A DNA stretch of 64,000 nucleotides from Minisyncoccia bacterium (GCA_044356325.1 JBIKWJ010000002.1:24602-88601); one strand, 5' to 3'. Numbered from the stretch's first letter, positions 385 to 60,525 are shown. Notes: generated by a model from the letters alone, not told the origin. Translations and numbers: made by a program.

Positions 385-3300
385 TTGTATTATATAATCA
401 ATGTAATGACAATACAGCAGTATATAGACAATCTCAATCAAAGATACAAGCTAGGCAATGCCACCGAGCATACTTTCCGTGGAGATTTACAACAATTATT
501 AGAAAGCCTAGTGCCCGACATCCGAGCTACCAATGAGCCTAAAAGACAAAGTTGTGGTGCCCCAGATTATATACTCACCAAAAGAGATATCCCCGTTGGA
601 TTTATCGAAGCTAAAGATATCGGTGATAAAGACCTAGATGGCCTCAAAAAAACAGGTAACAAAGAACAATTTGACCGCTACAAAGACTCCCTAGACAATC
701 TCATATTCACCGATTATATCAATTTTCACCTTTACCGAGACGGTGAACTCATCACCAAAATCAGCATAGCCCAGATAACCGAAAAAGGTCTACAGCCCAT
801 ACCCGAGAATTTCTCCATATTTAGCAATCTCATCCGAGAATTCAGCACTCATATTGGACAGAATATCAAAAGTAGCAAAAAACTCGCCGAGATGATGGCA
901 GGTAAAGCAAGACTACTCTCCGATATAATCGCCAAAGCCCTCCTAAGCGATGAAGACAATCAAGAAAATAGTACCCTCAGAGAGCAAATGCTCGCTTTCA
1001 AAAAAATCCTAATCCACGATATCACCCCGCAAGGTTTTGCTGATGTCTATGCTCAGACCATAGCCTATGGGATGTTCGCTGCTAGACTGCACGATTCTAC
1101 CCTACCCACCTTTGGGAGACAAGAAGCCGCCGAACTCATACCCAAAACCAATCCTTTTTTACGAAAATTATTCGGATATATAGCTGGACCAGATATAGAT
1201 GACAGAATCAAATGGGTAGTAGATAGCCTAGCCGACATCTTCCAAGTCGCCAATGTAGACGAAATCCTACATAATTATGGAAAATCCACCAAAATGGAAG
1301 ACCCAATCATTCATTTTTATGAAAATTTCCTCAGCGAATATGACCCCAAACTCCGAAAAGCCCGAGGAGTCTGGTATACCCCACAGCCTGTGGTGAATTT
1401 TATAGTCCGAGCCGTAGACGATATACTCAAAACCGAATTTAATCTCACCCAAGGACTAGCCGACACCAGTAAAACCAATATAAATCTAAAAACTCAAACC
1501 ACCGACAATCGCACCGCCACTGGCTACAAAAGCATATCCAAAGAAGTTCACAAAGTCCAAATTCTAGACCCCGCCACCGGTACAGGAACTTTTCTTGCTG
1601 AAATAATCCGCCAAATCAATGCCAAATTCCAAGGACAGCAAGGTCTCTGGAGCGACTATGTAGATAATCATCTCCTACCCCGAGTCAATGGCTTTGAATT
1701 GCTAATGGCAAGCTATGCTATGGCACACTTAAAATTAGATTTATTATTAAGAGATACCGGCTACAAATCCAATACAGGACAGAGATTTCGAGTTTATCTT
1801 ACCAATAGCCTTGAGGAAAGCCATCCCGACACTGGCACCTTCTTTGCTAGCTGGCTCAGCACCGAAGCCAATGAAGCCAATCATATCAAAAGAGACACCC
1901 CCGTAATGTGTATAATCGGCAATCCACCGTATAGTGTTAGTAGTAATAACAAAGGAAGTTGGATTCAAAATCTAATTATGGATTATAAAAAAGATCTAGA
2001 CGAAAAAAACATTCAGCCATTATCAGATGATTACATAAAATTCATTCGTTATGGACAGTATTATATAGACAAAAACGGTAGTGGTATACTAGCATATATA
2101 TCTAATAATAGCTTTGTTGACGGAATTATTCATAAATCAATGCGAAAAAATCTATTAGAGAGTTTTGATAAAATTTATATTTTAGACTTACACGGTAATA
2201 GCAAGAAAAAAGAAATATCCCCCGACGGTAGCCCCGATGTCAATGTCTTTGATATTCAACAAGGAGTCTCAATAAATTTCTTCATCAAAACAGGAGCCAA
2301 AAAGCCTAATGACTTAGGTAAAATCTATCATTATGACCTATATGGTAAAAGAGAATCTAAATATAATTTCCTCCAAGACAATAATCTTGCCAATATAGAA
2401 TTCCAAGAATTACAACCAAAAGAACCAAATTATTTCTTTGTAAGTAAAGATTTTGAAGGAGAATCTATTTATAAAAAATATATTGATTTAAGAACTTTGT
2501 TTATTAAAAATTCTATTGGAATTGTAACTGGAAAAGATGATGAATTAGTAAGTTTTGATAAAAATATTATTCAAGATAAATTTCAAAGTTATAATAAATT
2601 TTATTATAGACCTTTTGATATTAGGTATACAATTTTTGATAATAATATTTTACAAAGGGCAAGATACAATGTTATGCAGCACTATAATTGGGGTGAAAAT
2701 TTAGGTTTAAATATAAGTAGACAATCTAAATCAAAAGGAATTGAATGTTTAATTTCAAAAAACATTACCTGCAAACATTTAATTACTGGTGAAACTTATA
2801 ATTTCCCACTTTATCTCTATCCAGAAGATCAGAATTCTGAATTTTTACAAGACAAAGCACACACTTCGACAAGCTCAGTGCAAGGTCGAACTCCAAATCT
2901 AAATACAGAAATTATAAAGCAAATTGCAGATAATTTAAGTTTGAATTTTACTAAAGAAAAAGAAACAACCAAAGACACCTTTGCCCCGATAGATATATTA
3001 GATTATATTTATGCAGTGCTACATTCCCCTACTTATAGAGATAAGTATAAAGAGTTTTTGAAAATTGACTTCCCTCGAGTACCATATCCTCAAGATATAG
3101 CTAAATTCTGGCAATTAGTCGCTCTCGGCTCTCAACTTAGAGCCCTACATCTCCTAGAAAGCCCAATTCTAGAGACATATATCACCCAATACCCAATCGA
3201 CGGTGACAATACCATCACCAATATCCAAGTAGAACCCTGTCCTCCTTCGCCTGCCTGCGGCAGGCAGGGAGGGGGAAGCCTGAAAGGCGGAGGTGGATTG

Positions 3301-3816
3301 AGCTTAGACTCTCAAACTCAACCTGAAACCTATCCACCCTCCCCCGTCGCAAATGAGATTTACTCCTGTGAAACCTCACGGTTTCCCAACCTTCCTCCAC
3401 GGGAAAACTACCGTTTTCCCGACCCCTTTCCCAGACCTTCGGTCTATATCGGGGACTCCCTCCAAAGGGAGACAGAAAACTCAAACAAACTGTCCTCCCT
3501 TGGGGGAGATGCCCGCAGGGCGGAGGAGAACTGCCCTAAAAATTCCCCTCTTGAGGGGTGGCAGGCTTCGCCTGACGGGGTGAATAAAGACACACTCAGA
3601 ATTTACATCAACCCCACCCAATACTTTGACAAAGTCCCTAAAGTCGCTTGGGAATTCTATATCGGAGGCTATCAACCAGCTCAAAAATGGCTCAAAGATA
3701 GAAAAAACAGACAACTCAACTTTGAGGATATATTACATTATCAAAAAATTATAATCGCCCTCACCAATACCCATCATCTAATGCAACAAATCAACCACAT
3801 AAATATCGAGGAGTAA
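385..3816 (+). CDS. Large single-polypeptide Type IIG/IIL-like restriction-modification enzyme: N-terminal PD-(D/E)xK nuclease-like domain plus gamma-class N6-adenine DNA methyltransferase
   Basis: N-terminal motif APDYIL...GFIEAKDIG (PD..EAK). SAM-binding motif ILDPATGTGTFLAE. Catalytic motif CIIGNPPYSV (NPPY). Conserved C-terminal FYIGGYQPAQKWLKDRKNRQL typical of YeeA/MmeI-like methyltransferases. About 116 aa of repeat-derived low-complexity sequence is inserted in frame near the C terminus. The start may instead be the ATG at 406. Confidence 0.75.
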   Translation: MYYIINVMTIQQYIDNLNQRYKLGNATEHTFRGDLQQLLESLVPDIRATNEPKRQSCGAPDYILTKRDIPVGFIEAKDIGDKDLDGLKKTGNKEQFDRYKDSLDNLIFTDYINFHLYRDGELITKISIAQITEKGLQPIPENFSIFSNLIREFSTHIGQNIKSSKKLAEMMAGKARLLSDIIAKALLSDEDNQENSTLREQMLAFKKILIHDITPQGFADVYAQTIAYGMFAARLHDSTLPTFGRQEAAELIPKTNPFLRKLFGYIAGPDIDDRIKWVVDSLADIFQVANVDEILHNYGKSTKMEDPIIHFYENFLSEYDPKLRKARGVWYTPQPVVNFIVRAVDDILKTEFNLTQGLADTSKTNINLKTQTTDNRTATGYKSISKEVHKVQILDPATGTGTFLAEIIRQINAKFQGQQGLWSDYVDNHLLPRVNGFELLMASYAMAHLKLDLLLRDTGYKSNTGQRFRVYLTNSLEESHPDTGTFFASWLSTEANEANHIKRDTPVMCIIGNPPYSVSSNNKGSWIQNLIMDYKKDLDEKNIQPLSDDYIKFIRYGQYYIDKNGSGILAYISNNSFVDGIIHKSMRKNLLESFDKIYILDLHGNSKKKEISPDGSPDVNVFDIQQGVSINFFIKTGAKKPNDLGKIYHYDLYGKRESKYNFLQDNNLANIEFQELQPKEPNYFFVSKDFEGESIYKKYIDLRTLFIKNSIGIVTGKDDELVSFDKNIIQDKFQSYNKFYYRPFDIRYTIFDNNILQRARYNVMQHYNWGENLGLNISRQSKSKGIECLISKNITCKHLITGETYNFPLYLYPEDQNSEFLQDKAHTSTSSVQGRTPNLNTEIIKQIADNLSLNFTKEKETTKDTFAPIDILDYIYAVLHSPTYRDKYKEFLKIDFPRVPYPQDIAKFWQLVALGSQLRALHLLESPILETYITQYPIDGDNTITNIQVEPCPPSPACGRQGGGSLKGGGGLSLDSQTQPETYPPSPVANEIYSCETSRFPNLPPRENYRFPDPFPRPSVYIGDSLQRETENSNKLSSLGGDARRAEENCPKNSPLEGWQASPDGVNKDTLRIYINPTQYFDKVPKVAWEFYIGGYQPAQKWLKDRKNRQLNFEDILHYQKIIIALTNTHHLMQQINHINIEE
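3238..3595. repeat. GC-rich mosaic hairpin repeat element (copy A), lying inside the RM gene ORF
   Basis: Positions 3238-3478 are about 98% identical to 4317-4558. The 3' part carries the aaaaattcccctcttgaggggtggcaggcttcgcctgacggggtg module shared with other loci. Confidence 0.85.
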
Positions 3817-3890
3817 TAATCCCCCTTAAAAAGAAAATCTCCTCCCAATCAAGCGACGGGAGGAGAAAAAATTGAACTGAAGGAAAGCTA

Positions 3891-4223
3891 CTAGAAAGGA
3901 GTCGGTCTAGATATAAGGAACTTGGTATTTCTTGTATCTTGGGCTGTTGGGGTATTCTGAGCAAGTATTGAACAGGCTTGCTCGAGTACAGGGTACTGAA
4001 CGAACAAGTTGTTTAGCATTTGAACGCTTTGATCCCCCATGGCACTCACGTGCCTAAAAATGTTGATGACTTGATCATATAAATTCTTACCATCGTTAAC
4101 TGAGTTAGATATAATGTAACTCTCGTAAGACCTAGATATTGCGAGAACTAAATTAATGATTTCCATCTCAAACACCAATGCGAAGAACATTATTTTTATA
4201 TCATATACTATTGTATTATGCAA
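3891..4223 (-). CDS. Hypothetical protein (110 aa)
   Basis: ORF with AT-rich codon usage typical of the window, followed by an inverted-repeat terminator-like hairpin at 3845-3880 (ctcctccc...gggaggag). No recognisable motifs. Confidence 0.3.
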   Translation of the reverse strand: MHNTIVYDIKIMFFALVFEMEIINLVLAISRSYESYIISNSVNDGKNLYDQVINIFRHVSAMGDQSVQMLNNLFVQYPVLEQACSILAQNTPTAQDTRNTKFLISRPTPF

Positions 4224-4235
4224 GTAGATAATTCC

Positions 4236-4668
4236 TGTGGGGGCGACCTTTCAGTCGCCTGTGTTTCCACCCCGTCCAGCAAAGCTGTCCACCCCTCAAG
4301 AGGGGAATAGTTACTTTGTCCTCCTTCGCCTGCCTGCGGTAGGCAGGGAGGGGGAAGCCTGCAAGGCGGAGGTGGATTGAGCTTAGACTCTCAAGCTCAA
4401 CCTGAAACCTATCCACCCTCCCCCGTCGCAAATGAGATTTACTCCTGTGAAACCTCACGGTTTCCCAACCTTCCTCCACGGGAAAACTACCGTTTTCCCG
4501 ACCCCTTTCCCAGACCTTCGGTCTATATCGGGGACTCCCTCCAAAGGGAGACAGAAAGACAATCCTATTCTGTCAGCAGTAAGGAGACAAAAAGCCCAAA
4601 AAATCTGTCCTCCTTCGGAGGAGGTGGTACCTCCTATACCTTTGTTTAGGAGGTACCGGAGGTGGATA
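4236..4668. repeat. GC-rich mosaic hairpin repeat cluster (copy B plus flanking modules)
   Basis: Contains the ggcgacctttcagtcgcc hairpin, the tccaccccgtc...cccctcaagaggggaat hairpin, a 242-bp near-identical copy of 3238-3478, and ctcc/ggag hairpins. Overlapping ORFs (4216..4479, 4377..4649, 4432..4671, 4455..4769) are artefacts of the repeat. Confidence 0.85.
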
Positions 4669-4731
4669 TAAAATGATAGAAAAATGAAAAAGTACCGTCT
4701 CTGTGAAACGGCACTATGTTTTTGAGACAAA

Positions 4732-4802
4732 TCGGGATGGATGGATTCGAACCACCGGCCCCTTGCCAAAGCAAGTGCGCTACCAAGCTGCGCTACATCC
4801 CG
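4732..4802 (-). tRNA. tRNA-Pro(UGG)-like gene with an aberrantly short anticodon loop (possible pseudo-tRNA)
   Basis: The reverse complement folds as acceptor CGGGATG/CATCCCG, D arm GCGC-AGCTTGGTA-GCGC, T arm GGTGG-TTCGAAT-CCATC and variable loop GGGCC. The anticodon arm is CTTGC-TTTG-GCAAG, which is a 4-nt loop instead of 7. Total length is 71 nt. Confidence 0.45.
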
Positions 4803-4808
4803 ATAAAA

Positions 4809-4880
4809 CGCGAAGAGTCGGATTTGAACCCACGACCTTCCACTTAAGTAGTGGATGCTCTACCGCTGAGCTATCTTCGC
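4809..4880 (-). tRNA. tRNA-Lys(CUU)
   Basis: The reverse complement GCGAAGATAGCTCAGCGGTAGAGCATCCACTACTTAAGTGGAAGGTCGTGGGTTCAAATCCGACTCTTCGC gives a perfect 7-bp acceptor, D arm GCTC/GAGC, anticodon arm TCCAC-TACTTAA-GTGGA (anticodon CUU), and a T arm with TTCAAAT loop (one G:G mismatch in the T stem). No CCA encoded. Confidence 0.8.
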
Positions 4881-4980
4881 ATAAACCGTATATGATTATA
4901 CGTACTTTATAGAATTTGTCAAGAGCTGGGAGAATAATTTCAAGCATAATATATAGCAAATTATGAGTTTTATACTTCGT

Positions 4981-5011
4981 GAAAAGAAAAATCCCCAATC
5001 GTATTGGGGAT
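4981..5011 (-). terminator. Rho-independent terminator for the 5042..5876 unit
   Basis: On the minus strand, hairpin atcccca-atacga-tggggat is followed by tttttcttttc. Confidence 0.55.
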
Positions 5012-5041
5012 TATGAGACTTATAAAACTTTAATTATTCCT

Positions 5042-5497
5042 TCACCTCTCCAAATATTGGTGCACGTGTAATGGTATAATTATGCCATAAAAAGCTGGGC
5101 CACCGTCTATAGTGGCAAGACTTCCTCCAACTAAATTAAAGTGATGTCTTTGTATAATGGATAACAACTCTTTTAACTCCACCCCCAAAAATTCTCTCTG
5201 AGATAATAATTGGTCATGTATTGCCAGCCACTCATCAGTACTTAGATGAACCAGCTCTGGATTGGAGTTAAAAAGCCCCAAGATCCAAGAAATTATAACC
5301 TTAATCATGAGATCTTCTTGCGAATTGCTCAATATATATATCATATAATCTATTATTTGTGAATAGGGAGCAATAGTATCTGCTGAGATAAAATATCTTG
5401 TCATCTCTTTTTGACTGCTATATATAATATTTATAAAAAAATACCCCTGCCGAAACAGGGGGTGATGTGAATCAAGTAGGGGTTTACCCAACATCAT
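5042..5497 (-). CDS. Hypothetical protein (151 aa)
   Basis: ORF followed by a terminator. Overlaps the upstream ORF by 14 nt in another frame. Confidence 0.4.
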   Translation of the reverse strand: MMLGKPLLDSHHPLFRQGYFFINIIYSSQKEMTRYFISADTIAPYSQIIDYMIYILSNSQEDLMIKVIISWILGLFNSNPELVHLSTDEWLAIHDQLLSQREFLGVELKELLSIIQRHHFNLVGGSLATIDGGPAFYGIIIPLHVHQYLER

Positions 5498-5876
5498 CTT
5501 GAAATCTCTCAGGAAGAAGCATCCGTGGACCTCCTGCTTGTACTTGGCTCAATTCCCCCTCACTGAGGGGTTGTAAGTAGAGCAAATCGCATATCAGCGC
5601 GAATTGTTGCTTGGTAATTCTGACAGGGTACGGAAGTCCTTCTTCACCCATCTCACGGGAGATCTGAGCCTCATTCTCGAGCTCTACCTTAACAAGGAGG
5701 AGAGCTTCAAGGGCGTCAAAGATATTTCGACAATGTCTCAATTTTTCAAGATCAAGATGTATAGGCCAACACACCGCGAGTTCCTCCTGAAGCAGAGGAA
5801 TGGCCCGAAGCCACTCCTCAGGCCTCAGGCAATAAGGTGAGGTGAACATTTTTCTGATAGCTGAGAAAAGTCCCAT
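5484..5876 (-). CDS. Hypothetical protein (130 aa), compositionally atypical (GC about 50%)
   Basis: Long ORF in a locally GC-rich segment next to two tRNA genes. No recognisable motifs. Confidence 0.35.
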   Translation of the reverse strand: MGLFSAIRKMFTSPYCLRPEEWLRAIPLLQEELAVCWPIHLDLEKLRHCRNIFDALEALLLVKVELENEAQISREMGEEGLPYPVRITKQQFALICDLLYLQPLSEGELSQVQAGGPRMLLPERFQDDVG

Positions 5877-5921
5877 AATAGAAGAATTGCAAATGTGCCT
5901 CCTATATATAGCACATAATTA

Positions 5922-6686
5922 CTATTTTGTCAATATTAACTGACTCCTTATACACCCCAAATATACTATACCCCCTATTATCAGATACCAATATCCTAAC
6001 CACCCAGCTATACCGGTCCAGAATATCAGACTCCATATACCAGATAAGCTAAGCCAATAGGTAATATTTTTATCCAGACTTTTACGTTTTGGGAATAATA
6101 AATAAAATCCCCAAAAAGCTAATAAACTTGTCACCATCCATCCAAAGAAATTCATCAAAGGCACATTATAATACCATCCATCAATTTCCCAAATCCAAAA
6201 TCCTAAAGCAGTAGCCCCTGGATCAAGTATCAAATCAAAGGCTGTCATCAATACTGCTCCTAATATACTTTTTACCCATATTCCCTTTAGTCCCAATCTC
6301 TCTACCAATACCAAACTCAAGAAAAAAATTGGTGTCCAAGACAAACTCACTGTCCAAGGCACTAATCCAAAGAATTTAATATTCCCGAGAAACTCACCAT
6401 ATACAAAATTGCTATATGGCCAGCCCGTTATAATAGAGAATGATTCTATCAAGATTGGATATGAGAATATAATCAGAATTTTCCACCAAGATTTCCTCCA
6501 ATCCAGCCAAAGCCATAATCCATATATCAGAGGTATAGCGAGTAATACATTGGTAAGCTGTGAAATCGCTTGGAATATCACAAAATCAAAAGGTAAAGCC
6601 TCGGGATTAATACTAAAATACACGACAAAAAACCCGCTCAAAACCAAAATAATAGATGGTACAATTACTAATAATCTCTTTTGCAT
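5922..6686 (-). CDS. Trp-rich polytopic membrane protein, possibly carotenoid-biosynthesis-protein family (CruF / lycopene-cyclase-domain-like)
   Basis: 254 aa with about 7 hydrophobic helices and many Trp residues. Positioned next to a UbiA prenyltransferase and a CrtI-family desaturase. Family assignment is from context and not verified. Confidence 0.35.
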   Translation of the reverse strand: MQKRLLVIVPSIILVLSGFFVVYFSINPEALPFDFVIFQAISQLTNVLLAIPLIYGLWLWLDWRKSWWKILIIFSYPILIESFSIITGWPYSNFVYGEFLGNIKFFGLVPWTVSLSWTPIFFLSLVLVERLGLKGIWVKSILGAVLMTAFDLILDPGATALGFWIWEIDGWYYNVPLMNFFGWMVTSLLAFWGFYLLFPKRKSLDKNITYWLSLSGIWSLIFWTGIAGWLGYWYLIIGGIVYLGCIRSQLILTK

Positions 6687-6720
6687 ATGATATACTATAT
6701 ACTATATTACATTATATCAT

Positions 6721-7560
6721 ATGAGTATTGCTAAATTATTTCGTATTTCCCGCCCCCGCTTTTGGATATATCTCCTCGGCCCCTATCTTATTGGGAGTAT
6801 ACTTGCTTTTGAGCCTACTCAACTTATATTACAATGGCAATTTTGGCTTGGATTTGTATATTTTACTTTTCCTGCCAATCTCCTTATATATGGAGTAAAT
6901 GATATTTTTGATTATGAAACTGACAAATTAAACCCCAAAAAAATAGAATATGAAACTCTCGTCACCCCAAAAGAGCGAATAAGACTTTGGCTTTTTATTC
7001 TCGCTACTAATACCCCATTTATATTCGCCCTATATCTCATAAACTCCCTCACTAGTATGGGAATATTAGGCTTTTTATTCCTTGGCATACAATATTCTAG
7101 TATCCCTATTCGCGCCAAGTCTCGACCATTCCTAGACTCCCTATTCAATATATTATATATATTCCCGGGCATTATTGGATATAGTTTATTTAGTCTATCC
7201 CTCAATTTGGATTATAGGCTTCTCATCAGTGCTGGACTATGGACAATGGCTATGCACACCTATTCCGCCATACCAGATATTGAGGCTGACAGGGCGAGTC
7301 AAACCCCTACTATTGCGACAGTACTGGGCTCAAAATTAACCCTCATTTATTGTTTTATTTGTTATACTTTGGCTGGGATTTTGTTAGCACAATTTAACCT
7401 TATACTCGGAATTGGAATAGCTATTATATATGGCTTTATGATAGGACTTAGCTATAATCAGAATTCCGCTCGAATATTCAAATTATATACCTATTTCCCC
7501 CTGCTTAATGGCATTATTGGATTTATTTTATTTTGGAGTATTGTGATTTGGTATAGGTAA
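6721..7560 (+). CDS. UbiA-family aromatic/isoprenoid prenyltransferase (lycopene-elongase-like candidate)
   Basis: Contains YGVNDIFDYETD, matching the UbiA NDxxDxxxD motif. 279 aa with about 8 TM helices. Confidence 0.6.
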   Translation: MSIAKLFRISRPRFWIYLLGPYLIGSILAFEPTQLILQWQFWLGFVYFTFPANLLIYGVNDIFDYETDKLNPKKIEYETLVTPKERIRLWLFILATNTPFIFALYLINSLTSMGILGFLFLGIQYSSIPIRAKSRPFLDSLFNILYIFPGIIGYSLFSLSLNLDYRLLISAGLWTMAMHTYSAIPDIEADRASQTPTIATVLGSKLTLIYCFICYTLAGILLAQFNLILGIGIAIIYGFMIGLSYNQNSARIFKLYTYFPLLNGIIGFILFWSIVIWYR

Positions 7561-7575
7561 AGTTTTTACAACCTC

Positions 7576-7604
7576 TTGACAAATTTTGAGAAATGTGGTA
7601 TATA
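7576..7604 (+). promoter_or_regulatory. Sigma70-like promoter (TTGACA, 17 nt spacer, TGgTATATA extended -10)
   Basis: cTTGACAaattttgagaaatgTGgTATATA, with no ORF downstream. Confidence 0.45.
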
Positions 7605-7610
7605 TAATAA

Positions 7611-7739
7611 GTATTGAGTTTAAAGAAAGATTAACCACCTTGGAACATTACCTTAATGTTCATCTGGTCTTCCTAAACCAATACACCTTATAAAGTTCCC
7701 CCCGCATACTCCCCGGTTAAGGCCGGGGTCTTTTTTTTG
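7611..7739 (+). ncRNA. Candidate small RNA (about 130 nt), promoter-to-terminator unit without an ORF
   Basis: Bounded by the promoter above and a strong terminator. Internal hairpin gaacatt-acctt-aatgttc. The 5' gtattg pairs with caatac at 7667-7672. Confidence 0.3.
7711..7739 (+). terminator. Rho-independent terminator
   Basis: ccccgg-ttaagg-ccgggg followed by tcttttttttg. Confidence 0.7.
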
Positions 7740-7799
7740 CCAAATTATTATATTATAAATCTATCGAGGGCTTTTGTCCCCGCTATACATTGTTTAGGA

Positions 7800-8260
7800 G
7801 GGGGCCGATCTTTGTTCTAAAAATTCCCCTCAAGAGGGGTGGATTCCTGCTATGTTTACATAACAGGGAGACGGGGTGGAGTGTTTGAGAGCTATTTATT
7901 AATGATTTATTCCACCCCGTCAGGCAAGCCTGCCACCCCTCAAGAGGGGAATTTAGCTCAATCCACCTCCGACCTAAAGGTCACCCACCTCCTAAATAAA
8001 TATAGGAGGGACTTAAAGCTCCTCCAAAGGAGGACAGAATAACTGTCCCTCGCTGGCGAGGGTGGCACGGAGTGCCGGGTGTGGACAAAATTTATAATTC
8101 ATAATTTCAAATTATTCCACCCCGTCAGGCAAATAGTAATCCACCCTCCCCCTACGGGTACTCCCTCCAAAGGGAGACAAATAGAGAGAGGGTTAATTTG
8201 TCTTAAAATTCCCCTCTTGAGGGGTGGCAGGCTTTGCCTGACGGGGTGGATTGAATACTC
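7800..8260. repeat. GC-rich mosaic hairpin repeat cluster
   Basis: Contains the modules attcccctcaagaggggtgg, tccaccccgtcaggcaagcctgccacccctcaagaggggaat, cctccaaaggaggacag, gtccctcgctggcgagggtggcacggagtgccgggtgtggaca, ctccctccaaagggagaca and attcccctcttgaggggtggcaggctttgcctgacggggtgga. ORFs 7839..8042 and 8079..8507 are artefacts. Confidence 0.85.
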
Positions 8261-8261
8261 T

Positions 8262-9758
8262 CTATTCCTTAAGTGGACTATCTTGTTTGATATCAGCTAT
8301 ACGCTTATATACCATTTCAGCACTAATGAGCTGAATAGGAACTCCAATACCAGGATTAGTTCCCGCTCCGACATAATACAAATTCTTCACCTTTTTAGAA
8401 TAATTATTAGGGCGGAATATTGCTGTCTGATTAATTGTATGAGCGAGCCCCAAAGCTGTACCCTTATAGGCATTATAATCTTGTTCAAAATTCTTCACAC
8501 TATATAATCTCTTATAGATAATTCTCTCCTTCAAGTCAGGAATATTCATTTCCTCTTGCATAATAGTCAAGATTTTGTCCGCATAAGCTTCAAGATGCTC
8601 CTCAGTATACTCAAGTCCTGCCGCAATAGGGACTAATACGAATAAATTCTCATCCCCTTCTGGAGCTACATTTGGGTCTGTCTTAGATGGAGCGCATACA
8701 TACATAGATGGATCCTCTGGCCACATCGGATCATCAAAAATTTGCTTAAAGTTGGTCTTCCAATCTTGAGAGAATAACAGATTATGATGAACTAAACTAT
8801 CTACTTTTCCTCTAACCCCCAAATACATAATCAAAGCTGATGGAGCGAGAATTTTTTTATCCCAATACTTTTCATCATATTCACGATACTCTACGGGAAG
8901 TAAATTGAGCTCCGTATGAGTCATATCAGCATTAGACACCACAATATCTGCCTTCACAATTTCTCGAGACTCAAGCTCCACACCAACCGCTTTACCATTT
9001 TCTACGACAATTTGTTTTACCCCATTCCCACTCACCAAATTTACTCCATTTTTCTTGGCAATATTCACCAAGGCCTCTGTAATGGTATACATACCTCGTT
9101 GTGGATAAAACACCCCCATATTAAAATCAATATGATTCATAATACTATATAAAGCCGGAGTATTATACGGAGAACTACCGAGGAAAACCAAAGGATATTG
9201 TAAAATTTTCTTTACCAAAGGATGTTTGAAATATTTGCTCACATATGCATCCATATCACTAAATACCGACAATTTTGAACCCTCAATCATAGTACGGAAA
9301 TTGATAAAATCAAAAATAGAATTATAATTCTTATACATAAACCCGTCTTTCGCAATTTCATATTGCTGGCGAGCCTTGTCTAAATATTCTCGAAGTTTAT
9401 CCCCCGCTCCAGGTTCTAATTCTTCCAAAACAGGAATATCCCGCTCCAAATTAGAAAACATATCAATAATTTTATTATCGTCTTTGAAGAATATCCGATA
9501 AGATGGGGCAAGCCGAATCAATTCCAAATGATCTTCAACTTTTTCTCCCATAAATTCAAAGAAATTTTCAAATACATCCGGCATAAGATACCAAGAAGGA
9601 CCCATATCAAAACGAAATCCCTCAGCTTCAAAGACATTGGCTCTCCCACCAAGATTTTGATTCTTCTCATATAAAGTCACCTCATATCCTTTGCGAGCCA
9701 GGATACAGGCTGTTGCCAAACCACCAATACCCCCACCAATTACAATAACTTTTTGCAT
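8262..9758 (-). CDS. crtI: CrtI-family FAD-dependent desaturase (phytoene desaturase / CrtD-like)
   Basis: N-terminal Rossmann motif VIVIGGGIGGLATACILARKGYEVTLYEKNQNLGGR and the GFRFDMGPSW motif. 498 aa, typical of CrtI. Confidence 0.8.
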   Translation of the reverse strand: MQKVIVIGGGIGGLATACILARKGYEVTLYEKNQNLGGRANVFEAEGFRFDMGPSWYLMPDVFENFFEFMGEKVEDHLELIRLAPSYRIFFKDDNKIIDMFSNLERDIPVLEELEPGAGDKLREYLDKARQQYEIAKDGFMYKNYNSIFDFINFRTMIEGSKLSVFSDMDAYVSKYFKHPLVKKILQYPLVFLGSSPYNTPALYSIMNHIDFNMGVFYPQRGMYTITEALVNIAKKNGVNLVSGNGVKQIVVENGKAVGVELESREIVKADIVVSNADMTHTELNLLPVEYREYDEKYWDKKILAPSALIMYLGVRGKVDSLVHHNLLFSQDWKTNFKQIFDDPMWPEDPSMYVCAPSKTDPNVAPEGDENLFVLVPIAAGLEYTEEHLEAYADKILTIMQEEMNIPDLKERIIYKRLYSVKNFEQDYNAYKGTALGLAHTINQTAIFRPNNYSKKVKNLYYVGAGTNPGIGVPIQLISAEMVYKRIADIKQDSPLKE

Positions 9759-10080
9759 ATATACGACATTAAATTAATTATATATAGTATATCATAGATA
9801 AACTTCTTTATGATACAATATATATAGTCCGCTTCTGTATCACCATGCCCTCTCCCGACATTATTTTGCTCTTTGATGCCGCTATCCTTTATGTTTTGGC
9901 ATTTGTATTCCTCATCAATCATTTGAGTCGAGGATTCCCCCTTTACCGAAACACACCCTATAATTTTACATTTATTCTTGCATTTGGGGTTACACTCATT
10001 GCTCTTGGTTTAAGGTTTTACCTCCTAACCATAAGATGATATTCTCCCCGCCTCCCGATCCCGTCGTGAGGCTTTTTATA

Positions 10081-10111
10081 TAAAAACCGCCGAGCTTTTG
10101 TGGGCTCGGCG
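10081..10111 (-). terminator. Rho-independent terminator on the minus strand
   Basis: cgccgagc-ccacaaaa-gctcggcg followed by ttttt when read on the minus strand. Confidence 0.65.
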
Positions 10112-10124
10112 AAAAGGTAAAATT

Positions 10125-10440
10125 AGAGATTTGAATCAGGGAGTATGACGGGATGAGGAAGTGGCCAAGGCCACTTCAGGGACAGGTGCTATCGGAGCCA
10201 CGAAAAACTTCGCTCCAGGGAATTGGGACTTGACCCAATTAACAAGAGGTTCAAGAAAAGGTGGTCTCAGTGAATACCCTGCCTCGGGTGGCCAAGGAAC
10301 AGTTTGAAACGATGATTGATTGTCGTCCGTAGGGACAGCTGCCAAATATTCTCGCCTGTGATCCCTGATAACAAGTACTCGTAACGCATAAGACGACATG
10401 GTCTTGAAGCACCGGGTTGTGACAGATTGCCCGGTATACT
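10125..10440 (-). ncRNA. GC-rich (about 50%) structured RNA candidate of about 300 nt; identity unresolved (RNase P RNA, SRP RNA, 6S-like and others are candidates)
   Basis: Sharp GC island in an AT-rich genome with many perfect helices (for example gaagtggcc-aa-ggccacttc, accggg...cccggt). A minus-strand terminator follows immediately. The only ORF here (10136..10399) is Pro/Ser-rich low complexity. Confidence 0.3.
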
Positions 10441-10579
10441 ATAGACTATGCCTATACTCTACACTATACTGGGCAGTCGCATCACATAACCCCTCTATTA
10501 AACTATACTTTATAAGACTTGTCAATATTAGATATCAGATTTACTATTTGCCAAAATATATTAGGATATAGTATACTAT

Positions 10580-11714: not shown

Positions 11715-11847
11715 ATTATACCAGTTGATATGAATTTGTATAGAATCTTATCCAATCCTAACTATCACTCCCGAGAAGCTTCGGCTCAAACCAAAAGAAA
11801 GTCTCCCAGTACCGTGCTTGGGAGATTTTTTGTTTTATATATCATAG

Positions 11848-12240
11848 GAGCGACCTTTCAGTCGCCCGAAAGTCCTCCTCAGCCATCTCAAATTGGATTT
11901 ACTTTGTCCTCCTTTGCCTGCCTGCGGTAGGCAGGGAGGAGGTGGCCGCCAGGCTGGAGGTGGATAATTAAAAAATATATTCTAAAATTTAATATTATTA
12001 AAAACAAATCCACCCTCCCCCTACGGGTACTCCCTCCAAAGGGAGACAAAAATCTCGAATAACCTGTCCCCCTTCGGAGGACAGAATAACTGTCCCTCGC
12101 TGGCGAGGGTGGCACGGAGTGCCGGGTGTGGACAGAGAGTTTTTAATTTATAATTTCAAATTATTCCACCCCGTCTCTCTCCTCAATAAAGTATAGGAGG
12201 GATCCACCCCTCAATTCCCACAAAATATGGGAATTTTTCT
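11848..12240. repeat. GC-rich mosaic hairpin repeat cluster
   Basis: Contains ggagcgacctttcagtcgccc, tgtcctcctttgcctgcctgcggtaggcagggagg, ctccctccaaagggagaca, gtccctcgctggcgagggtggcacggagtgccgggtgtggaca and attccaccccgtc modules. ORFs 11694..11930 and 11888..12115 are artefacts. Confidence 0.85.
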
Positions 12241-20241: not shown

Positions 20242-20421
20242 CTAGCTGTGATGGGGCTAGGTGATAGGGTTGACAACGGGCTCGACCGGAATGGTCAAGC
20301 GGTCATGACGTCCATGACGCTGTGGGTAGAGGCTTCGGATGCCGCTATTAGAGGGAGAAACTCCCCAATAATTTTTCTTCCGACGAACTTTCCGGGAGTC
20401 ATGACGCTTACCGTGTGCCAT
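20242..20421 (-). CDS. rpmF: 50S ribosomal protein L32 (missed by the ORF track; the annotated + ORF 20236..20427 is antisense)
   Basis: The minus-strand translation MAHGKRHDSRKVRRKKNYWGVSPSNSGIRSLYPQRHGRHDRLTIPVEPVVNPIT matches the bL32 N-terminal signature MA.PK[RK]..S[KR]..RR...W. A TTGACA-17-TATTAT promoter sits upstream at about 20470-20500. Confidence 0.7.
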
Positions 20422-25234: not shown

Positions 25235-25269
25235 ATACTGTTATTATATCATATTTTATGAAAATAATG

Positions 25270-25455
25270 TGGACTTTCGTAGCGGAGGGTTTATCCCTCC
25301 AGTTCATATAGAGTCGGCAACCCCGCCGACATTGTTTTCCGTAGGGGCGACAAACTTGTCTTAAAATTCCCATCTTGAGGGGTGGACAGCTTCGCTGGAC
25401 GGGGTGGAGTCTTTTTATATTCGTAGGGGGCGACCTCTCAGTCGCCCGTCCCGTG
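25270..25455. repeat. GC-rich mosaic hairpin repeat cluster
   Basis: ggagggtttatccctcc, gtcggcaaccccgccgac, attcccatcttgaggggtggacagcttcgctggacggggtgga and gggggcgacctctcagtcgccc. Confidence 0.8.
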
Positions 25456-25536
25456 ATATAATTAATTCTAGTTATTTACTCTTGACAAAATTAGCAAAAT
25501 ATGATATAAGTCTATTGTCCCCTGCGGAGAATTTCC

Positions 25537-25776
25537 GTGCTTCCAAGATTTTACTGTAGTAGAGATTTTATCCAATTTATACTTGCATTAGCCAGTATAG
25601 TACTTTTCCTAAGTGCAGTAATTATTATGCTTTATGCTTTTGGGAATGTATTTTTTACAAATAATACCCTATCTTGGAAACTAAGCTTGTTTTTTAATAA
25701 TTTATTTTCTGCAATTATCTGTACGCTGGTTGGGCTTGGATTAAGTAGCATTTTAAAGCGTATAGATAATTCATAA
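25537..25776 (+). CDS. Small hypothetical membrane protein (79 aa, 2 TM)
   Basis: Preceded by cTTGACAaaattagcaaaatatgaTATAAG promoter-like sequence. Confidence 0.3.
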   Translation: MLPRFYCSRDFIQFILALASIVLFLSAVIIMLYAFGNVFFTNNTLSWKLSLFFNNLFSAIICTLVGLGLSSILKRIDNS

Positions 25777-25896
25777 AGATAATATTGGCAGTAATCTATA
25801 CCCTAACATTACACTGGAGTCACTTAAGAGTGACTCCTTTCAATTTATTTAATTTTTTTACTCAAAAAATACTCTCCCTCAATCATACAATATCAT

Positions 25897-26010
25897 GGGC
25901 GGCTGAAAGGTCGACCCTACGAGTGGGGAAACGAATCCACCTCCAGCACTTTGTGCCACCTCCTAATCTACATGCCATCAAAGCTCCCTTACCACTGGGA
26001 GCTTTTTCAT
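25897..26010. repeat. GC-rich hairpin repeat modules
   Basis: gggcggctgaaaggtcgaccctacgag (variant of the ggcgactgaaaggtcgcc module) and agctccc-ttaccact-gggagct. ORF 25785..26024 is probably an artefact. Confidence 0.7.
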
Positions 26011-26151
26011 ATCTATACAGTTAACTCAATAGTTTTTTACTCTCAGAAAAAGTTCACCCCCTTCTCCGCCCACAGCAACCAGGTAGAGTAAAGAAAAAAA
26101 GCCCGATCAATGTCGAGCCTTTGAATGGGGGAAGAGATGTCATTTTTTCTT

Positions 26152-26481
26152 TTATTGAGATGAAATGGCGTAAATACCACTCACCTCACCCCTGTAGCTC
26201 CAGCAATTTGCTGGAAACTTATCTTTAATAAGATTGATATCATGCCACCCTGTTTCCACTTTAAAAAGCTTACCTTTATTACACCTCTGTTGAGGTAAAT
26301 CCCTAAGATTGGTTTTCCTACTCTCCACTAAAGTAAAGGTATTAATTCTTGGCTGAAGTTTATTTGTTAACTCTGTAACCTGAATTTGCTCAGGTGGCTG
26401 TACCTTACCACACCCCGACACTCCAAGGAGGAGTGTTGAGAGGAAAGCCATAGCCATAATACGTTGATTGAAAGGGGACAT
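26152..26481 (-). CDS. Lipoprotein (paralog 1)
   Basis: Signal peptide with lipobox, AFLSTLLLGVSGC. Paralog of 27158..27565, with a near-identical 5' region and upstream sequence. Confidence 0.6.
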   Translation of the reverse strand: MSPFNQRIMAMAFLSTLLLGVSGCGKVQPPEQIQVTELTNKLQPRINTFTLVESRKTNLRDLPQQRCNKGKLFKVETGWHDINLIKDKFPANCWSYRGEVSGIYAISSQ

Positions 26482-26626
26482 GGAGATCGCTCCATAATGT
26501 ACTCTAATCTTATACCATATTTTTACATTTTTGTCAAGTAATTATAACACACTTTGCCCTATAGACCTCCAATATTGCATAAAATTTGCATATATGTTAT
26601 AATCGCGACACATTGCACATTCAAAC

Positions 26627-27001
26627 ATGACTTTTTTCTCTGAACAAGGCCTCACCGAAGCTCAAGTGCTTCAACGGGTTTGCAATTTATTGAAGGAAAG
26701 AGACCCCACTTTCCTAATCTCAAGGCCTTTTGCAATTCCCGGCACTGATTATGGGCTTTTTGGTAAATCCCTTGAAGCATTCTTCAAGCTCAGCTCTGGA
26801 AGTGTTGCTAATATGGTGATATTCTTGGAAGCTGTACATAGGGGGAACCTTGCTAAGGAAGCTCTCATTGAACTCATTGAGAATCAGATAGCCCTACCTA
26901 AAGAACTCGAGGATAAAAAACAAGTCCATAGCAAAGACCGCCGTAAATATCTCCAGCAAGCTAATATGATTTTGTCAAAACTCAAATCCCTCCCGCGCTA
27001 A
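26627..27001 (+). CDS. Hypothetical protein (124 aa)
   Basis: ORF between the two lipoprotein paralogs. No motif. Confidence 0.35.
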   Translation: MTFFSEQGLTEAQVLQRVCNLLKERDPTFLISRPFAIPGTDYGLFGKSLEAFFKLSSGSVANMVIFLEAVHRGNLAKEALIELIENQIALPKELEDKKQVHSKDRRKYLQQANMILSKLKSLPR

Positions 27002-27157
27002 TCAAAGCTCGGGGGTTTTTACTTTATTCTTATTATTTCAGTAAGGCATATTATAAGCAAAGAAACCCATACCCATCCAGTACACTACCCCCTTAAATAG
27101 AACCTTAGGGAAAGAAAAAAGCCCAGTCCATGCCGGGCTTTAGGGTATAGCTATGAG

Positions 27158-27565
27158 CTAATGGGTAGGCTTGGGAAGCAATAAGACAGTATCACGCCCA
27201 TTTACCATTGTGTGGGGGAGGGATGAATATCCGGGCACAACAATATCCGTAGGAATAACTCTTATATAGTTGCCAGGAAAATTTGGCAGCCCAACTGGAA
27301 GCATAGACACAATATGACATGCCCTGGTAAATCTTTTCGTGGATTGGCACATATACTCTAAATCTTTTTGCTTTACATCCCTATGCATACCTATCCTCTT
27401 ATCACCTGCATTATCAACGGAGTATAAATGTACTGTATATCTCATTTCATTAAAAATCTTTCTTTCACTTTTCGGTATTCCATTACACCCCGACACTCCA
27501 AGGAGAAGTGTTGAGAGGAAAGCTAGAATAATTGACCTAGTAAACCTTGACATGGATCGCTCCAT
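27158..27565 (-). CDS. Lipoprotein (paralog 2)
   Basis: AFLSTLLLGVSGC lipobox. Followed by a terminator (agccc-agtccatgcc-gggct with a T-run on the minus strand). Confidence 0.6.
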   Translation of the reverse strand: MERSMSRFTRSIILAFLSTLLLGVSGCNGIPKSERKIFNEMRYTVHLYSVDNAGDKRIGMHRDVKQKDLEYMCQSTKRFTRACHIVSMLPVGLPNFPGNYIRVIPTDIVVPGYSSLPHTMVNGRDTVLLLPKPTH

Positions 27566-27623
27566 AATGTGCTTTAATCTTATACCATATTTTTGTCTAG
27601 TTTTATGAGGTGTATAGAATTCA

Positions 27624-27960
27624 GGCGACTAAAAGGTCACCCCTACGAGAGATTTTTATTCAGAAATAATGAGTTAAGAAATTTAATAAGAAAGTTTATT
27701 GTAATGCTTTAGGGTAGCTGATCTTTACTATCCCCCTTTGGAGGGGGCCGCCTGAAAGGCGGGGGTGGATAGATTTATAGGTTCAATATAAAATACACTT
27801 TACTTATTATCCACCTCCACCCTGCGGGTACCTCCTCCAAAGGAGGACAGTTTTATATCCCTAACCGCTGGACACCACCCAGGAGAGGAGTATATTAAAA
27901 TATACTGTACAAAAAATTCCCCTCTTGAGGGGTGACAAGCTTGCTTGTCGGGGTGGAGAA
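27624..27960. repeat. GC-rich mosaic hairpin repeat cluster
   Basis: aggcgactaaaaggtcacccctacgag, ccccctttggagggggccgcctgaaaggcgggggtggat, tccacctccaccctgcgggtacctcctccaaaggaggacag and attcccctcttgaggggtgacaagcttgcttgtcggggtgga. Confidence 0.8.
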
Positions 27961-28029
27961 AGATACCAAATCTTGAAATTTAGCTAATTTTATGCTATAA
28001 TTGTTAGTATTAAAGTAATAAATACCTCT

Positions 28030-31913: not shown

Positions 31914-31954
31914 ATTATACCCCCAAAGCCTGCCTCAACTCATCACTTACTTTC
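31914..31954. repeat. 41-bp direct repeat, copy 1 (identical to 32625..32665)
   Basis: Exact match ttatacccccaaagcctgcctcaactcatcacttactttc. Confidence 0.9.
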
Positions 31955-32584
31955 ATATTGTTTCAAATTAGACTCGACATCAGTATATGTCTTAATACCA
32001 AGAAATGTAAGTAGAATAATCTGATTTAGAATTAACTCTATTCTTGGGAAAAACGACGTAATTATAAATATGGGGATTAGAGTTAAAATTGTCATATGTA
32101 TAGGAATTATCCTTTTATATATAGAAAACATTAAATCAATCAGATATTTGAAATTATTAGAATGTAATTTAAAATCTTTATAGTATAAAAATGTATACAG
32201 ATACCCTAAAAAGTATAACAAGATAGAGATAAATATATTAAAGGAATCTAAATTTACTTGATTTATAAAAAATTGAATAAATGTAAAATATCCATAATGA
32301 AATCCCCCATAGCTAATAATAAAAAATATGAACAACAATAATTTTATACTATGGTTAACAGTATTTACGCTAACATCTTTATTTGTAAACAACTCATCAT
32401 TTCCCAAATCTTCAAGTTTAAGTGTAAGTAATGTGATACAAAAAAAGAATCCTATAATAATACTTTGTGCCCAATAGACCAAAACTATAGTCGCCACATC
32501 CCAATTTTGCCAAATCGCAAAAAACATAGTCACTAAGTTGGGAATTAGTATTGAATATACAGCTGGGTTTTTTAGAATCTTCAT
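31943..32584 (-). CDS. Hypothetical polytopic membrane protein (213 aa), bracketed by 41-bp direct repeats
   Basis: Six hydrophobic helices. Flanked by identical copies of ttatacccccaaagcctgcctcaactcatcacttactttc. Confidence 0.45.
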   Translation of the reverse strand: MKILKNPAVYSILIPNLVTMFFAIWQNWDVATIVLVYWAQSIIIGFFFCITLLTLKLEDLGNDELFTNKDVSVNTVNHSIKLLLFIFFIISYGGFHYGYFTFIQFFINQVNLDSFNIFISILLYFLGYLYTFLYYKDFKLHSNNFKYLIDLMFSIYKRIIPIHMTILTLIPIFIITSFFPRIELILNQIILLTFLGIKTYTDVESNLKQYESK

Positions 32585-32624: not shown

Positions 32625-32665
32625 ATTATACCCCCAAAGCCTGCCTCAACTCATCACTTACTTTC
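32625..32665. repeat. 41-bp direct repeat, copy 2 (overlaps the sufT 3' end)
   Basis: Exact match to 31914..31954. On the minus strand it encodes the last 12 codons of sufT. Confidence 0.9.
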
Positions 32666-46869: not shown

Positions 46870-47000
46870 TATTGTCCTCCCTTGGGGGAGGTGGCCGTTA
46901 GGCCGGAGGAGGATGGAGCTTTAAGTTTGTATTTTATCCTCCCCAAGGGAGTGCATAATACAAGCGACTACAAGATCTCCCCTACGAAGTGAAGAAGATA
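46870..47000. repeat. GC-rich hairpin repeat modules
   Basis: tgtcctcccttgggggaggtggccgttaggccggaggaggatgga, cctccccaagggag and gcgactacaagatctcccctacgaag. Confidence 0.75.
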
Positions 47001-47476: not shown

Positions 47477-47478
47477 AC

Positions 47479-55261: not shown

Positions 55262-55378
55262 AAATTGTCCTCCTTTCTACCTACGGCAGATAGATGGAGG
55301 AGGTGGCACAGAGTGCCGGAGGTGGATTTTTCTCTAGTTGATTTTAGCTAGGCGACTGAAAAGTCACCCCTACGAGAC
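55262..55378. repeat. GC-rich hairpin repeat modules
   Basis: ttgtcctcctttctacctacggcagatagatggaggaggtggcacagagtgccggaggtggat and ggcgactgaaaagtcacccctacgag. Confidence 0.75.
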
Positions 55379-56783: not shown

Positions 56784-56827
56784 ATAAAAAATATCACATT
56801 CAATTATTATTGTCTAGTTTTTGTCTT

Positions 56828-56985
56828 AGGGGCGACCTTTCAGTCGACTAGACACACCCACCAGAGAAAAGTCCACCCTCCGGCATTCCGTACCCCCCCT
56901 CCTAAACAAAGCATGGGAGGGACTTAAAGCCCTCAATTTATCTGCCCACCTACGGTAGGTAAACCGTAGGGAGAGAGGGGAACTT
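56828..56985. repeat. GC-rich hairpin repeat modules
   Basis: ggggcgacctttcagtcgac, gggagggacttaaagccctc and cccacctacggtaggtaaaccgtagggagagagggg. Confidence 0.75.
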
Positions 56986-59895: not shown

Positions 59896-60334
59896 TACCT
59901 TTATTCTAATTAATAACTCTTGTATTATAGTATATCGTATTAGCAGTAATCTGTGAAGAGTGCTATTTTGGTTTTTTAGGTAAGAAAAAACCCGAGCCGC
60001 GAAACGGTCCGGGGGGGAAGGAAAAAAAGGTTTATTCAAACGGGTATATTATCATCCGACTCTTCTAGAGGAATCCTCAAAATAACTCGGCGTTCGGCAT
60101 CATATGCATCCCTATCCGTGATTTTTGAACGAGCTATGAGAGCCATACGATAGTCAGCGAGGGCAACTGTAACAGCCTTAAATTCGGAACCTAACAAGTC
60201 TAAAACCTCAAGAGGGAACTCCTAGACAATAGCATATTTCCCCACTTTTGTCTATGATATCTTTCTCATCTTAGTCCATAGTATGTATAAAATATAATAC
60301 ATCGTGTAGGTTTTGTAGAGTGAGTTTTGATGTG

Positions 60335-60525
60335 GTGGAGGTAGTCATCTGTCCCTCGCTGGCGAGGGGGTACCGCTTGCGGTGGGTGTGGACAATTGGC
60401 AAACTATATGTAAAAATTAAACACTGATTTTAATTATATCCACCCCGTCTAGCAAAGCTATCCACCCCTCGAGAGGGGAATTTTTAACACCAAATACAGG
60501 CGACTGAAAGGTCGCCCCTACAAAA
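60335..60525. repeat. GC-rich mosaic hairpin repeat cluster
   Basis: gtccctcgctggcgagggggtaccgcttgcggtgggtgtggaca, tccaccccgtctagcaaagctatccacccctcgagaggggaat and aggcgactgaaaggtcgcccctac. Confidence 0.8.

Follow-up and report, generated by a model that had tools for sequence, protein, structure and literature searches.

The stretch of DNA analysed here (hereafter the window) comprises 64,000 nucleotides (nt) of a Minisyncoccia bacterium (GCA_044356325.1, JBIKWJ010000002.1:24602-88601) and has a housekeeping gene content, with polA, uvrA, mutS/L, suf genes, dnaJ and genes of ribosomal proteins. Scattered along it are eleven clusters of short palindromic repeats, one of them inside a restriction-modification (RM) gene, which add up to 2.9 kb; this corresponds to 4.5% of the window and to roughly a third of its non-coding DNA. 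The whole is a mosaic resembling repetitive extragenic palindromic (REP) sequences and bacterial interspersed mosaic elements (BIME), with coding insertions resembling Rickettsia palindromic elements (RPE). The window sequence is identical to the 159.6-kb JGI metagenome contig Ga0335038_0000009, and close strains are present in several freshwater metagenomes. Positions 5979-9799 are syntenic, at 74-80% nucleotide identity, with a locus (L107) of a 'Candidatus Parcubacteria' metagenome-assembled genome (MAG), and the repeat modules are common to the window and several Paceibacteria/Parcubacteria MAGs. On the basis of such sequence comparisons, we conclude that the host organism belongs to Patescibacteria (CPR, for candidate phyla radiation). 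Composition had at first hinted at a cyanobacterium, a reading that was dropped when the genome scan and the synteny led to Paceibacteria-type MAGs.

The repeats are far more abundant than shuffled sequence would allow. In the window, the core of module A (ATTCCCCTCWWGAGGGGTG) is found 8 times against 0.00 expected, that of module B (GGCGACYKTTCAGTCGCC, up to 3 mismatches) 8 times against 0.01, and the motif GGRGGTGGAT 9 times against 0.20; a covariance model of module A recovers 8 window copies at E<1e-10, with other unit types matching more weakly. One block of 241 nt (3238-3478) recurs at 4317-4557 with 99% identity. The original prediction, made from the sequence alone, had listed 12 repeat-bearing loci, and modules are present at every one of them; a chance-level copy number, which it named as an outcome that would speak against a repeat family, does not apply within the window (8-9 core copies against about 0). 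Its statement that nearly every non-operonic spacer is occupied goes too far, as clusters lie in 9 of the 12 spacers of at least 250 nt and in 9-10 of the approximately 21 spacers of at least 100 nt, and the GC content, given there as 33% for the genome, averages about 36% in the window. The possibility that the modules are pieces of a prophage or of a single larger element, which it had also raised against itself, is rejected because the genes between which they are scattered (polA, yebC, rpsI, rpsO, dnaJ) are housekeeping ones.

Five modules, A to E, had been distinguished in the prediction. Modules A, C, D and E are instead variants of one superfamily of double-hairpin (DH) units of approximately 42-62 nt, and only B is distinct. 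A DH unit begins with a TKTCC/ATTCC box; hairpin 1, whose 5' arm is rich in C and whose 3' arm is rich in G, comes next, and (A)TG separates it from hairpin 2, behind which stand (A)C and GGRGGTGGAT. Hairpin 2 is thereby enclosed by a direct repeat (GGGGTGG), made up of the hairpin-1 G-rich arm and the 3' tail, both of which are complementary to the 5' C-box. Starting with TKTCC/ATTCC, these units lack the GTAG tetranucleotide found at the 5' end of REP sequences. About 30 of them lie in the window, 16 on the plus and 13 on the minus strand, as singlets or as inverted doublets, whose ends (ATTCYCCTC...GAGGGGAAT) resemble terminal inverted repeats (TIRs). As single-stranded DNA, the inverted doublet at 7820-7955 folds into a long branched hairpin (z=-7.7), and another doublet gave z=-3.8. 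Units can also be nested: the hairpin-2 loop of the minus-strand unit 3332-3457 contains an insert of 105 nt (3344-3448) that is missing in a strain of 96% identity. No curated Rfam 15 family was found at the units, neither at gathering thresholds across the whole window and on 18 loci from several phyla, nor at E values up to 10 on window positions 3100-8400. Our literature search returned no report of the module-A double hairpin, nor of such repeats in Patescibacteria or its subgroups.

The DH units extend well beyond this host. An exact-pattern scan for module A found at least 118 loci, counting one genome per species; the pattern comprised 16 fixed and 2 two-fold bases, and approximately 6e11 bases were scanned, for which about 70 chance matches are estimated. 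Among the matches listed, 138 of 147 continue with a hairpin followed by GGGGTGG and are therefore regarded as members of the family. In the same set, many genomes hold several copies, and the hosts include Paceibacteria, Nomurabacteria, Saccharibacteria, Gracilibacteria, Kapabacteria, Ignavibacteria, Bacteroidota (with the isolates Pedobacter mendelii and Parasediminibacterium), a termite-gut Bacillota MAG, Thermotogaceae, Nitrospirota, Hyphomicrobiales, Desulfobulbaceae and others. Since the pattern fixed hairpin 1, the scan is not a census. Carriage by viruses was considered and rejected, with only 3 matches in IMG/VR.

Hairpin 2 keeps its pairing while its sequence is free. Among the matches listed, the 138 module-A copies from public genomes display 109 distinct hairpin-2 sequences, and in 129 of them a stem of at least 3 bp is possible. 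When 145 copies are aligned with the model, each of the 4 pairs in the main helix of hairpin 2 changes on both sides, with 99% of cells paired. Over the whole structure, 203 compensatory cells were counted against 55 in shuffles, none of 500 shuffles reaching 203, and the covariation collapses in slid-partner controls. The window itself offers an example, in that compensatory differences separate the C-type unit at 8044 from that at 60350 (GGCAC/GTGCC versus ACCGC/GCGGT).

Module B, (C)GTAGG-GGCGAC-CTTTCA-GTCGCC-TGT, has the classical REP form of a GTAG followed by a single 6-bp hairpin. The arrangement GTAG(G)-GGCGAC-loop-GTCGCC is present in 7 of the 9 window copies and in 12 of 18 copies from related genomes. 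The module usually marks the edge of a cluster, in the window as single copies; elsewhere, inverted pairs enclose whole clusters (L172, L173, L204) or a methyltransferase gene (L205). Among the loci examined, B was seen only in Paceibacteria-type genomes. Scanning metagenomes with GTAGGGGCGACCTTTCAGTCGCC yielded 53 loci.

It is module B that connects to a candidate enzyme. Locus L185 encodes a protein of 167 amino acids (aa) that matches Pfam Y1_Tnp (PF01797, E=8e-8), carries MPNHIHFL as its HUH motif and has YIDENP in its C-terminal part. The ATG is preceded, at a distance of 33 nt, by an exact B, and a truncated B comes just after the stop codon. At four further loci (L215 to L218), B is found 12-30 nt before the ATG and 10-50 nt after the stop of a gene of the REP-associated tyrosine transposase (RAYT) type, whose products are 74-96% identical, L217 and L218 encoding the same protein. 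In L185, L215 and L216 the gene sits between ligA and murG. The upstream B of L217 is identical over 29 nt to window positions 60493-60521, and the sample of L217 also holds a strain of the window's species. Inside the RAYT open reading frame (ORF) of L185 (11250-11804), a further B-like copy lies in frame about 30 aa after the HUH motif and encodes TGDIRSPLRE; across the family of 11 proteins, this internal segment is kept in close members and missing in distant ones. A Y1/HUH gene flanked by the repeat is thus found in close relatives at 5 of 5 loci. The defining arrangement of REP-RAYT systems is a RAYT gene in single copy with its own REP on either side. The prediction had suggested, as a possibility for the modules, mobilization in trans by a RAYT or by a transposase encoded elsewhere. 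Because a Y1_Tnp gene is flanked by B in the five loci of the relatives, the RAYT idea gains support for module B; it does not extend to modules A, C, D and E, which lack GTAG and have no linked enzyme. Our search of the literature found no report of REP or RAYT for Patescibacteria.

Within the window, the 11 clusters (Table 1) are built of 2-8 units of these two classes, with both orientations represented, and linkers recur between them, such as TGAGCT(A/T)A and the segment common to 8091-8126 and 12140-12175. With such alternating orientations and recurrent linkers, the description of the loci as a BIME-like mosaic of REP-type hairpins holds.

Table 1. Repeat clusters of the window and the units that compose them. 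(+) and (-) give unit orientation; A and the C-, D- and E-type units are DH variants.
Cluster	Position	Strand	Context	Units
1	3232-3591	+	In-frame insertion of 360 nt; the gene that holds it is of the Type ISP/MmeI-like RM kind, with reading frame 385-3816	DH(+) 3238-3298; DH(-) 3332-3457; DH(+) 3491-3532; A(+) 3542-3585
2	4233-4667		Downstream of a pair of tRNA genes; 4775 is the end of other assemblies	B(+) 4233-4259 (GTGG variant); A(-) 4265-4308; DH(+) 4317-4377; DH(-) 4411-4536; DH(+) 4606-4667
3	7800-8253		Between convergent ubiA-like and amine-oxidase genes; assemblies break at 7948	A(+)/A(-) inverted doublet 7823-7952; DH(-) 7961-8013; C-type DH(+) 8044-8086; D-type DH(-) 8139-8179; A(+) 8208-8251
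4	11844-12237		Segments common to cluster 3, in a different order	B(+) 11844-11866; E-type DH(+) 11905-11965; D-type DH(-) 12008-12048; C-type DH(+) 12091-12133; half unit ~12164-12176
5	25270-25455		Spacer of divergent polA and a small ORF; starting point of contigs from other samples	GTAG-hairpin variant 25276-25301; A(+) 25363-25411; B(+) 25421-25446
6	25897-25967	-	Canonical terminator next to it, ~25975-26005	B(-) 25898-25924; DH(-)-like remnant 25935-25967
7	27624-27958		Upstream of yebC	B(-) 27624-27650; DH(+) 27727-27772; DH(-) 27809-27849; A(+) 27916-27958
8	46873-46989		Downstream of rpsI	DH(+) 46873-46914; short hairpin remnant; degenerate B(-) 46962-46989
9	55266-55377		Between an SLT-like gene and rpsO	DH(+) 55266-55327; B(-) 55351-55377
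10	56826-56985		Divergent spacer	B(+) 56826-56848; DH(-) 56871-56924; further hairpin 56945-56975
11	60350-60525		Upstream of dnaJ	C-type DH(+) 60350-60393; A(-) 60438-60481; B(-) 60499-60525 (exact GTAGGGGCGACCTTTCAGTCGCC)

The units are not confined to spacers. The reading frame of the RM gene, 1143 codons long, runs through cluster 1, and the gene call of the JGI contig gives a protein of 1136 aa. Homologs that lack the 120 aa continue from QYPIDGDN..K directly to (K)VYIN.TQYF, and the insert splits the C-terminal RM domain into two stretches in Pfam, which recognises nothing in the insert peptides; used as a protein query, the 121-aa window insert retrieved only one protein. While the modules do generate spurious ORFs, as predicted, the copy in the RM gene is a true in-frame insertion. 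Among the loci collected with the module-A pattern, other Patescibacteria carry in-frame copies in genes whose products were confirmed by Pfam, namely KsgA/RsmA (two copies), PurD, PheT, Tgt, TatD, an arginase-family enzyme and RNase R. In genes, the units usually take the shape of an inverted doublet, 81-90 nt long (ATTCTCCTCTTGAGGAGTACCC-loop-GGGGGAGGTGGA-linker-TCCACCCCG-hairpin-CACCCCTCAAGAGGGGAAT), which translates as SPLEEYP.GGGG...ATPQEGN or, in the opposite orientation, as NSPLEGW...DGV.

All resolved in-gene copies have lengths that are multiples of 3, are free of stops and almost always use one frame. Of the motif copies that have at least 100 open codons to either side on their own strand, 6 are read through in frame and 2 are not. 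Insertion in frame into conserved coding genes, as in RPE, is found here as well. The doublet occupies the same site across genomes in PurD (L035, L036) and in PheT (L045, L118), and the old copy in the PurD gene of L035, which has lost hairpin-1 pairing, has kept the frame. These shared positions, together with the retained hairpin potential and the insertions for which Patescibacteria rRNA genes are known, might suggest intervening sequences that are removed at the RNA or protein level, yet this is very improbable given the lengths, frame and lack of stops, the two RM variants of 105 and 126 nt that both stay in frame, the L035 copy that does so without hairpin-1 pairing, and the lack of any ribozyme or intron signature in Rfam. 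As a separate observation, P0010, a Type ISP homolog of the window RM protein, contains module-like peptides (TPAPPKEGN and NSPPLEGCPKDGV) at two other sites, which suggests, from sequence, that related units have inserted into this protein family independently.

Comparison of strains reveals a turnover by whole modules. The prediction had proposed presence/absence polymorphism as a check, and such polymorphism exists at the rpsI spacer, the RM insert, and the ubiA/oxidase and yebC spacers. Downstream of rpsI, L001 and L008 have 72 additional nt and L003 has other modules. In the RM gene, the window carries the additional nested 105 nt and L132 an additional 126 nt; being bounded by two module-A copies, the 126-nt difference is consistent with unequal exchange. 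In the ubiA/oxidase spacer of L107, some modules are more than 90% identical to those of the window and others are replaced, inverted or interrupted. Upstream of yebC, three strains are identical as far as the B at 27624 and unrelated beyond it. The whole polA-yebC interval (25235-28029) is hypervariable, with different small ORFs in each strain and junctions at module B; in the window these small ORFs have no Pfam match, and the 5' ends and upstream regions of two of them are almost the same (26410-26524 and 27485-27594). Assemblies of short reads repeatedly stop within clusters. An apparent length difference of EF-P between strains was discarded as a gene-calling artefact, the DNA being identical.

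A dedicated enzyme or parent element was also sought for the DH units. A RAYT-family profile was run on every ORF in 1.52 Mb of retrieved sequence and recovered only the B-flanked loci and one weak match, in L118 (5754-6489). This Y1-like ORF has the motifs NHFHIIL and YIHLNP; its Pfam match (E=5e-4) does not reach the curated cutoff. The hairpin ATTCCC(C)ATAGGTCAGACCTATGGG(G)AAT flanks the ORF, and an in-frame copy of it also lies inside, directly after the HUH motif. The flanking hairpin and hairpin 1 of the DH units have the same foot, ATTCCCC...GGGGAAT. On these sequence grounds, DH-type hairpins could be substrates of other Y1 enzymes, for which we consider L118 a lead, not proof. A search by tblastn with an IS200 TnpA query gave nothing in 1.14 Mb and then in 0.33 Mb of loci. 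Inverted hairpin-1 pairs spaced 350-4000 nt apart, as an autonomous parent element would have them, enclose only dnaJ and a DUF559-like ORF, and no parent insertion sequence (IS) with matching ends, as expected for MITEs (miniature inverted-repeat transposable elements), was found in 1.5 Mb of loci.

Two observations from these loci are recorded here in their own right. In L052 (28-556), an ORF of 162 aa, by eye a DUF559/Vsr-type endonuclease, lies between inverted module-A units. In a Kapaibacterium MAG (L098, 1227-3246), an IS3-type element of approximately 2 kb (orfA and an rve-type orfB, from ORF translations) stands between a truncated and a full module A with identical upstream flanks, and from this arrangement the IS seems to have inserted into, or next to, a module-A unit.

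We interpret the clusters as selfish, non-autonomous palindromic repeats of the REP/BIME type, belonging to two classes, in a Paceibacteria-like genome of the Patescibacteria, and estimate the probability of this reading at roughly 70%. The first class pairs module B with the single-copy RAYT-type HUH/Y1 gene that B itself encloses; the RAYT would recognise the folded single-stranded B hairpin with its 5' GTAG and would copy or move B in trans. The DH units of the second class would also spread as folded single strands, probably by means of a Y1/HUH enzyme encoded elsewhere. Copies would then pile up in spacers, nest in each other's hairpin-2 loops and recombine, which could give rise to mosaics, indels and strain-specific rearrangements. 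Within genes, the survivors would be those copies that fall in a stop-free frame and a tolerant surface loop, to be translated as an extra peptide.

Several observations weigh against this interpretation. Neither the window nor the approximately 10 kb outside each of its ends contains a transposase, and the searched DNA offers no enzyme linked to the DH units; L118 is a single case with a Pfam score below the cutoff. The B copies around the RAYT gene are in direct orientation, not inverted as in classical systems. Neither a target-site duplication nor a defined target was found at six resolved in-gene junctions. Finally, the orthologous modules at 7795-7955 are more than 90% conserved between species, compared to 74-80% for the genes, which may point to selection for a role in the host instead of selfishness alone.

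This conservation is also an argument for regarding the repeats as RNA structures that act in cis and are under host selection, for instance as terminators, stabilisers of mRNA 3' ends or RNase sites; they would then be abundant because they are useful. The strong structural conservation with covariation points the same way, as does a slight excess of G-U wobbles over other mismatches in hairpin 2 (10 versus 4). Copies are also more frequent in convergent than in divergent spacers (11 versus 4 at Patescibacteria loci, 9 versus 6 at others), and module A in antisense reads CCCCTC-loop-GAGGGG followed by AATTTTT and was picked up by a terminator scan. However, sense units are not followed by a T-run, so that only antisense module A is terminator-like; sense and antisense copies are balanced in tandem spacers (8 versus 10, and 21 versus 14), copies also occur in divergent promoter regions and inside ORFs, and strains differ by whole modules without a change in genes. 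Genes beside clusters moreover possess terminators of their own, with hairpin and T-run, near 7711, 11796, 25975, 47030 and 55405, and the units match no Rfam family. We favour selfish DNA over regulatory RNA because copies occupy all types of spacer, show no sense/antisense bias and adjoin separate terminators. The role as terminator or mRNA stabilizer that had been proposed in the prediction is for the same reasons not favoured, both orientations and all spacer types being represented next to separate canonical terminators, and an RNA explanation of this kind appears improbable. The module conservation and the terminator-like antisense A do leave some room for a host role.

Somewhat less probable still is that the repeats, and especially B, serve as DNA sites of a recombinase or nucleoid protein, either shuffling cassettes in the manner of integron attC sites or acting as gyrase- or IHF-like sites as in BIMEs. 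The synteny break exactly at B upstream of yebC and the strain-specific small ORFs between polA and yebC would fit such a role, as would the inverted B copies around the methyltransferase gene (L205) and around whole clusters (L173, L204) and the DUF559-like ORF between inverted A units (L052). Against this, no integrase or recombinase lies near the loci in the window, most copies adjoin ordinary housekeeping genes, and ordinary recombination between REP copies predicts the same rearrangements.

The reading of the clusters as mobile palindromes of the REP/BIME type is also the one to be placed among known systems. As in the REP, BIME and REPIN (REP doublet forming hairpins) sequences of E. coli and Pseudomonas with their RAYT, module B combines a GTAG with a short imperfect palindrome in many dispersed copies, and a single-copy syntenic Y1/HUH gene, here in relatives, is flanked by the same repeat; mosaics in alternating orientation, inverted doublets that form long hairpins and rearrangement junctions at the repeats are further parallels. 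Unlike in the classical systems, the host is a member of the Patescibacteria, the B copies flanking the RAYT are direct, and another in-frame B-like copy is found within the gene. The DH class, which forms the majority, departs further, having no GTAG, two hairpins with a direct G-box repeat, a presence in many phyla and copies in coding genes.

In this last respect the DH units resemble the RPE, selfish palindromic DNA that resides in frame within protein-coding genes. Both are inserted as in-frame palindromes in an rRNA methylase, tRNA-modifying enzymes, an aminoacyl-tRNA synthetase and a purine-synthesis enzyme, where they add a loop peptide; both have copies in spacers as well, and no linked transposase is known. 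They differ in host lineage and apparently in sequence, Pfam recognising nothing in the insert peptides. The DH units are also shorter (45-nt singlets, 81-90-nt doublets) and modular, with a variable hairpin 2, and spread over many phyla instead of one genus.

The small dispersed repeats (SDR) of Nostoc and its relatives are very small, nested mobile repeats of cyanobacteria, which share with the present units a very short length, nesting in each other or in hairpin carriers, mosaics and the lack of a known mobilising enzyme, and differ in sequence and architecture. To our knowledge, neither in-frame coding copies nor an association with a Y1 gene is known for SDR. With the Correia elements of Neisseria, which are MITEs, and the BOX elements of Streptococcus, the repeats have in common their short and modular build, the TIRs of doublets, intergenic abundance and strain polymorphism; they differ from these in that no target-site duplication was seen, no parent IS has matching ends and 45-nt singlets are dispersed.

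Some other features of the window lie outside the repeat family. On the minus strand, a segment of approximately 385 nt (10085-10470) with about 54% GC and no called gene ends in a strong terminator (10112-10087) and folds better than 100 of 100 shuffles (z=-3.9); no Rfam family matches it at E up to 1, and it may be an undescribed structured RNA. Also on the minus strand, a tRNA-like gene beside tRNA-Lys (4731-4803) scores 58 bits with a tRNA model; its anticodon loop (CTTGC-TTTG-GCAAG) is approximately 3 nt short, and ARAGORN names no anticodon. A perfect direct repeat of 41 nt (31914-31954 and 32625-32665), unrelated to the hairpin modules, surrounds a gene for a DUF6498 protein of 213 aa (31943-32584, minus strand). 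A GC-rich island at 20245-20419 (minus strand) contains a small, very basic ORF (MAHGKRHDSRKVRRKK...) that is inconsistently called in metagenome annotation.

Altogether, repeats that fill about a third of the window's non-coding DNA are unexpected in the tiny, streamlined genomes of Patescibacteria. They break metagenome assemblies, create spurious ORFs and mark the points of strain-level rearrangement. The tolerance of essential enzymes for repeat-encoded insertions of 15-120 aa parallels the case of Rickettsia. We speculate, and regard it as a tentative proposal more doubtful than probable, that the DH unit (ATTCCCCTC-loop-GAGGGG-TG-[any hairpin]-C-GGGGTGGA) is an undescribed miniature mobile element that crosses phyla; Y1/HUH enzymes would recognise its ATTCCCC...GGGGAAT foot, and, having evolved to be free of stops in both directions, it could colonise and persist in essential genes of Patescibacteria as a steady source of new surface loops. 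If this holds true, DH units would supply new protein surface loops in reduced genomes.

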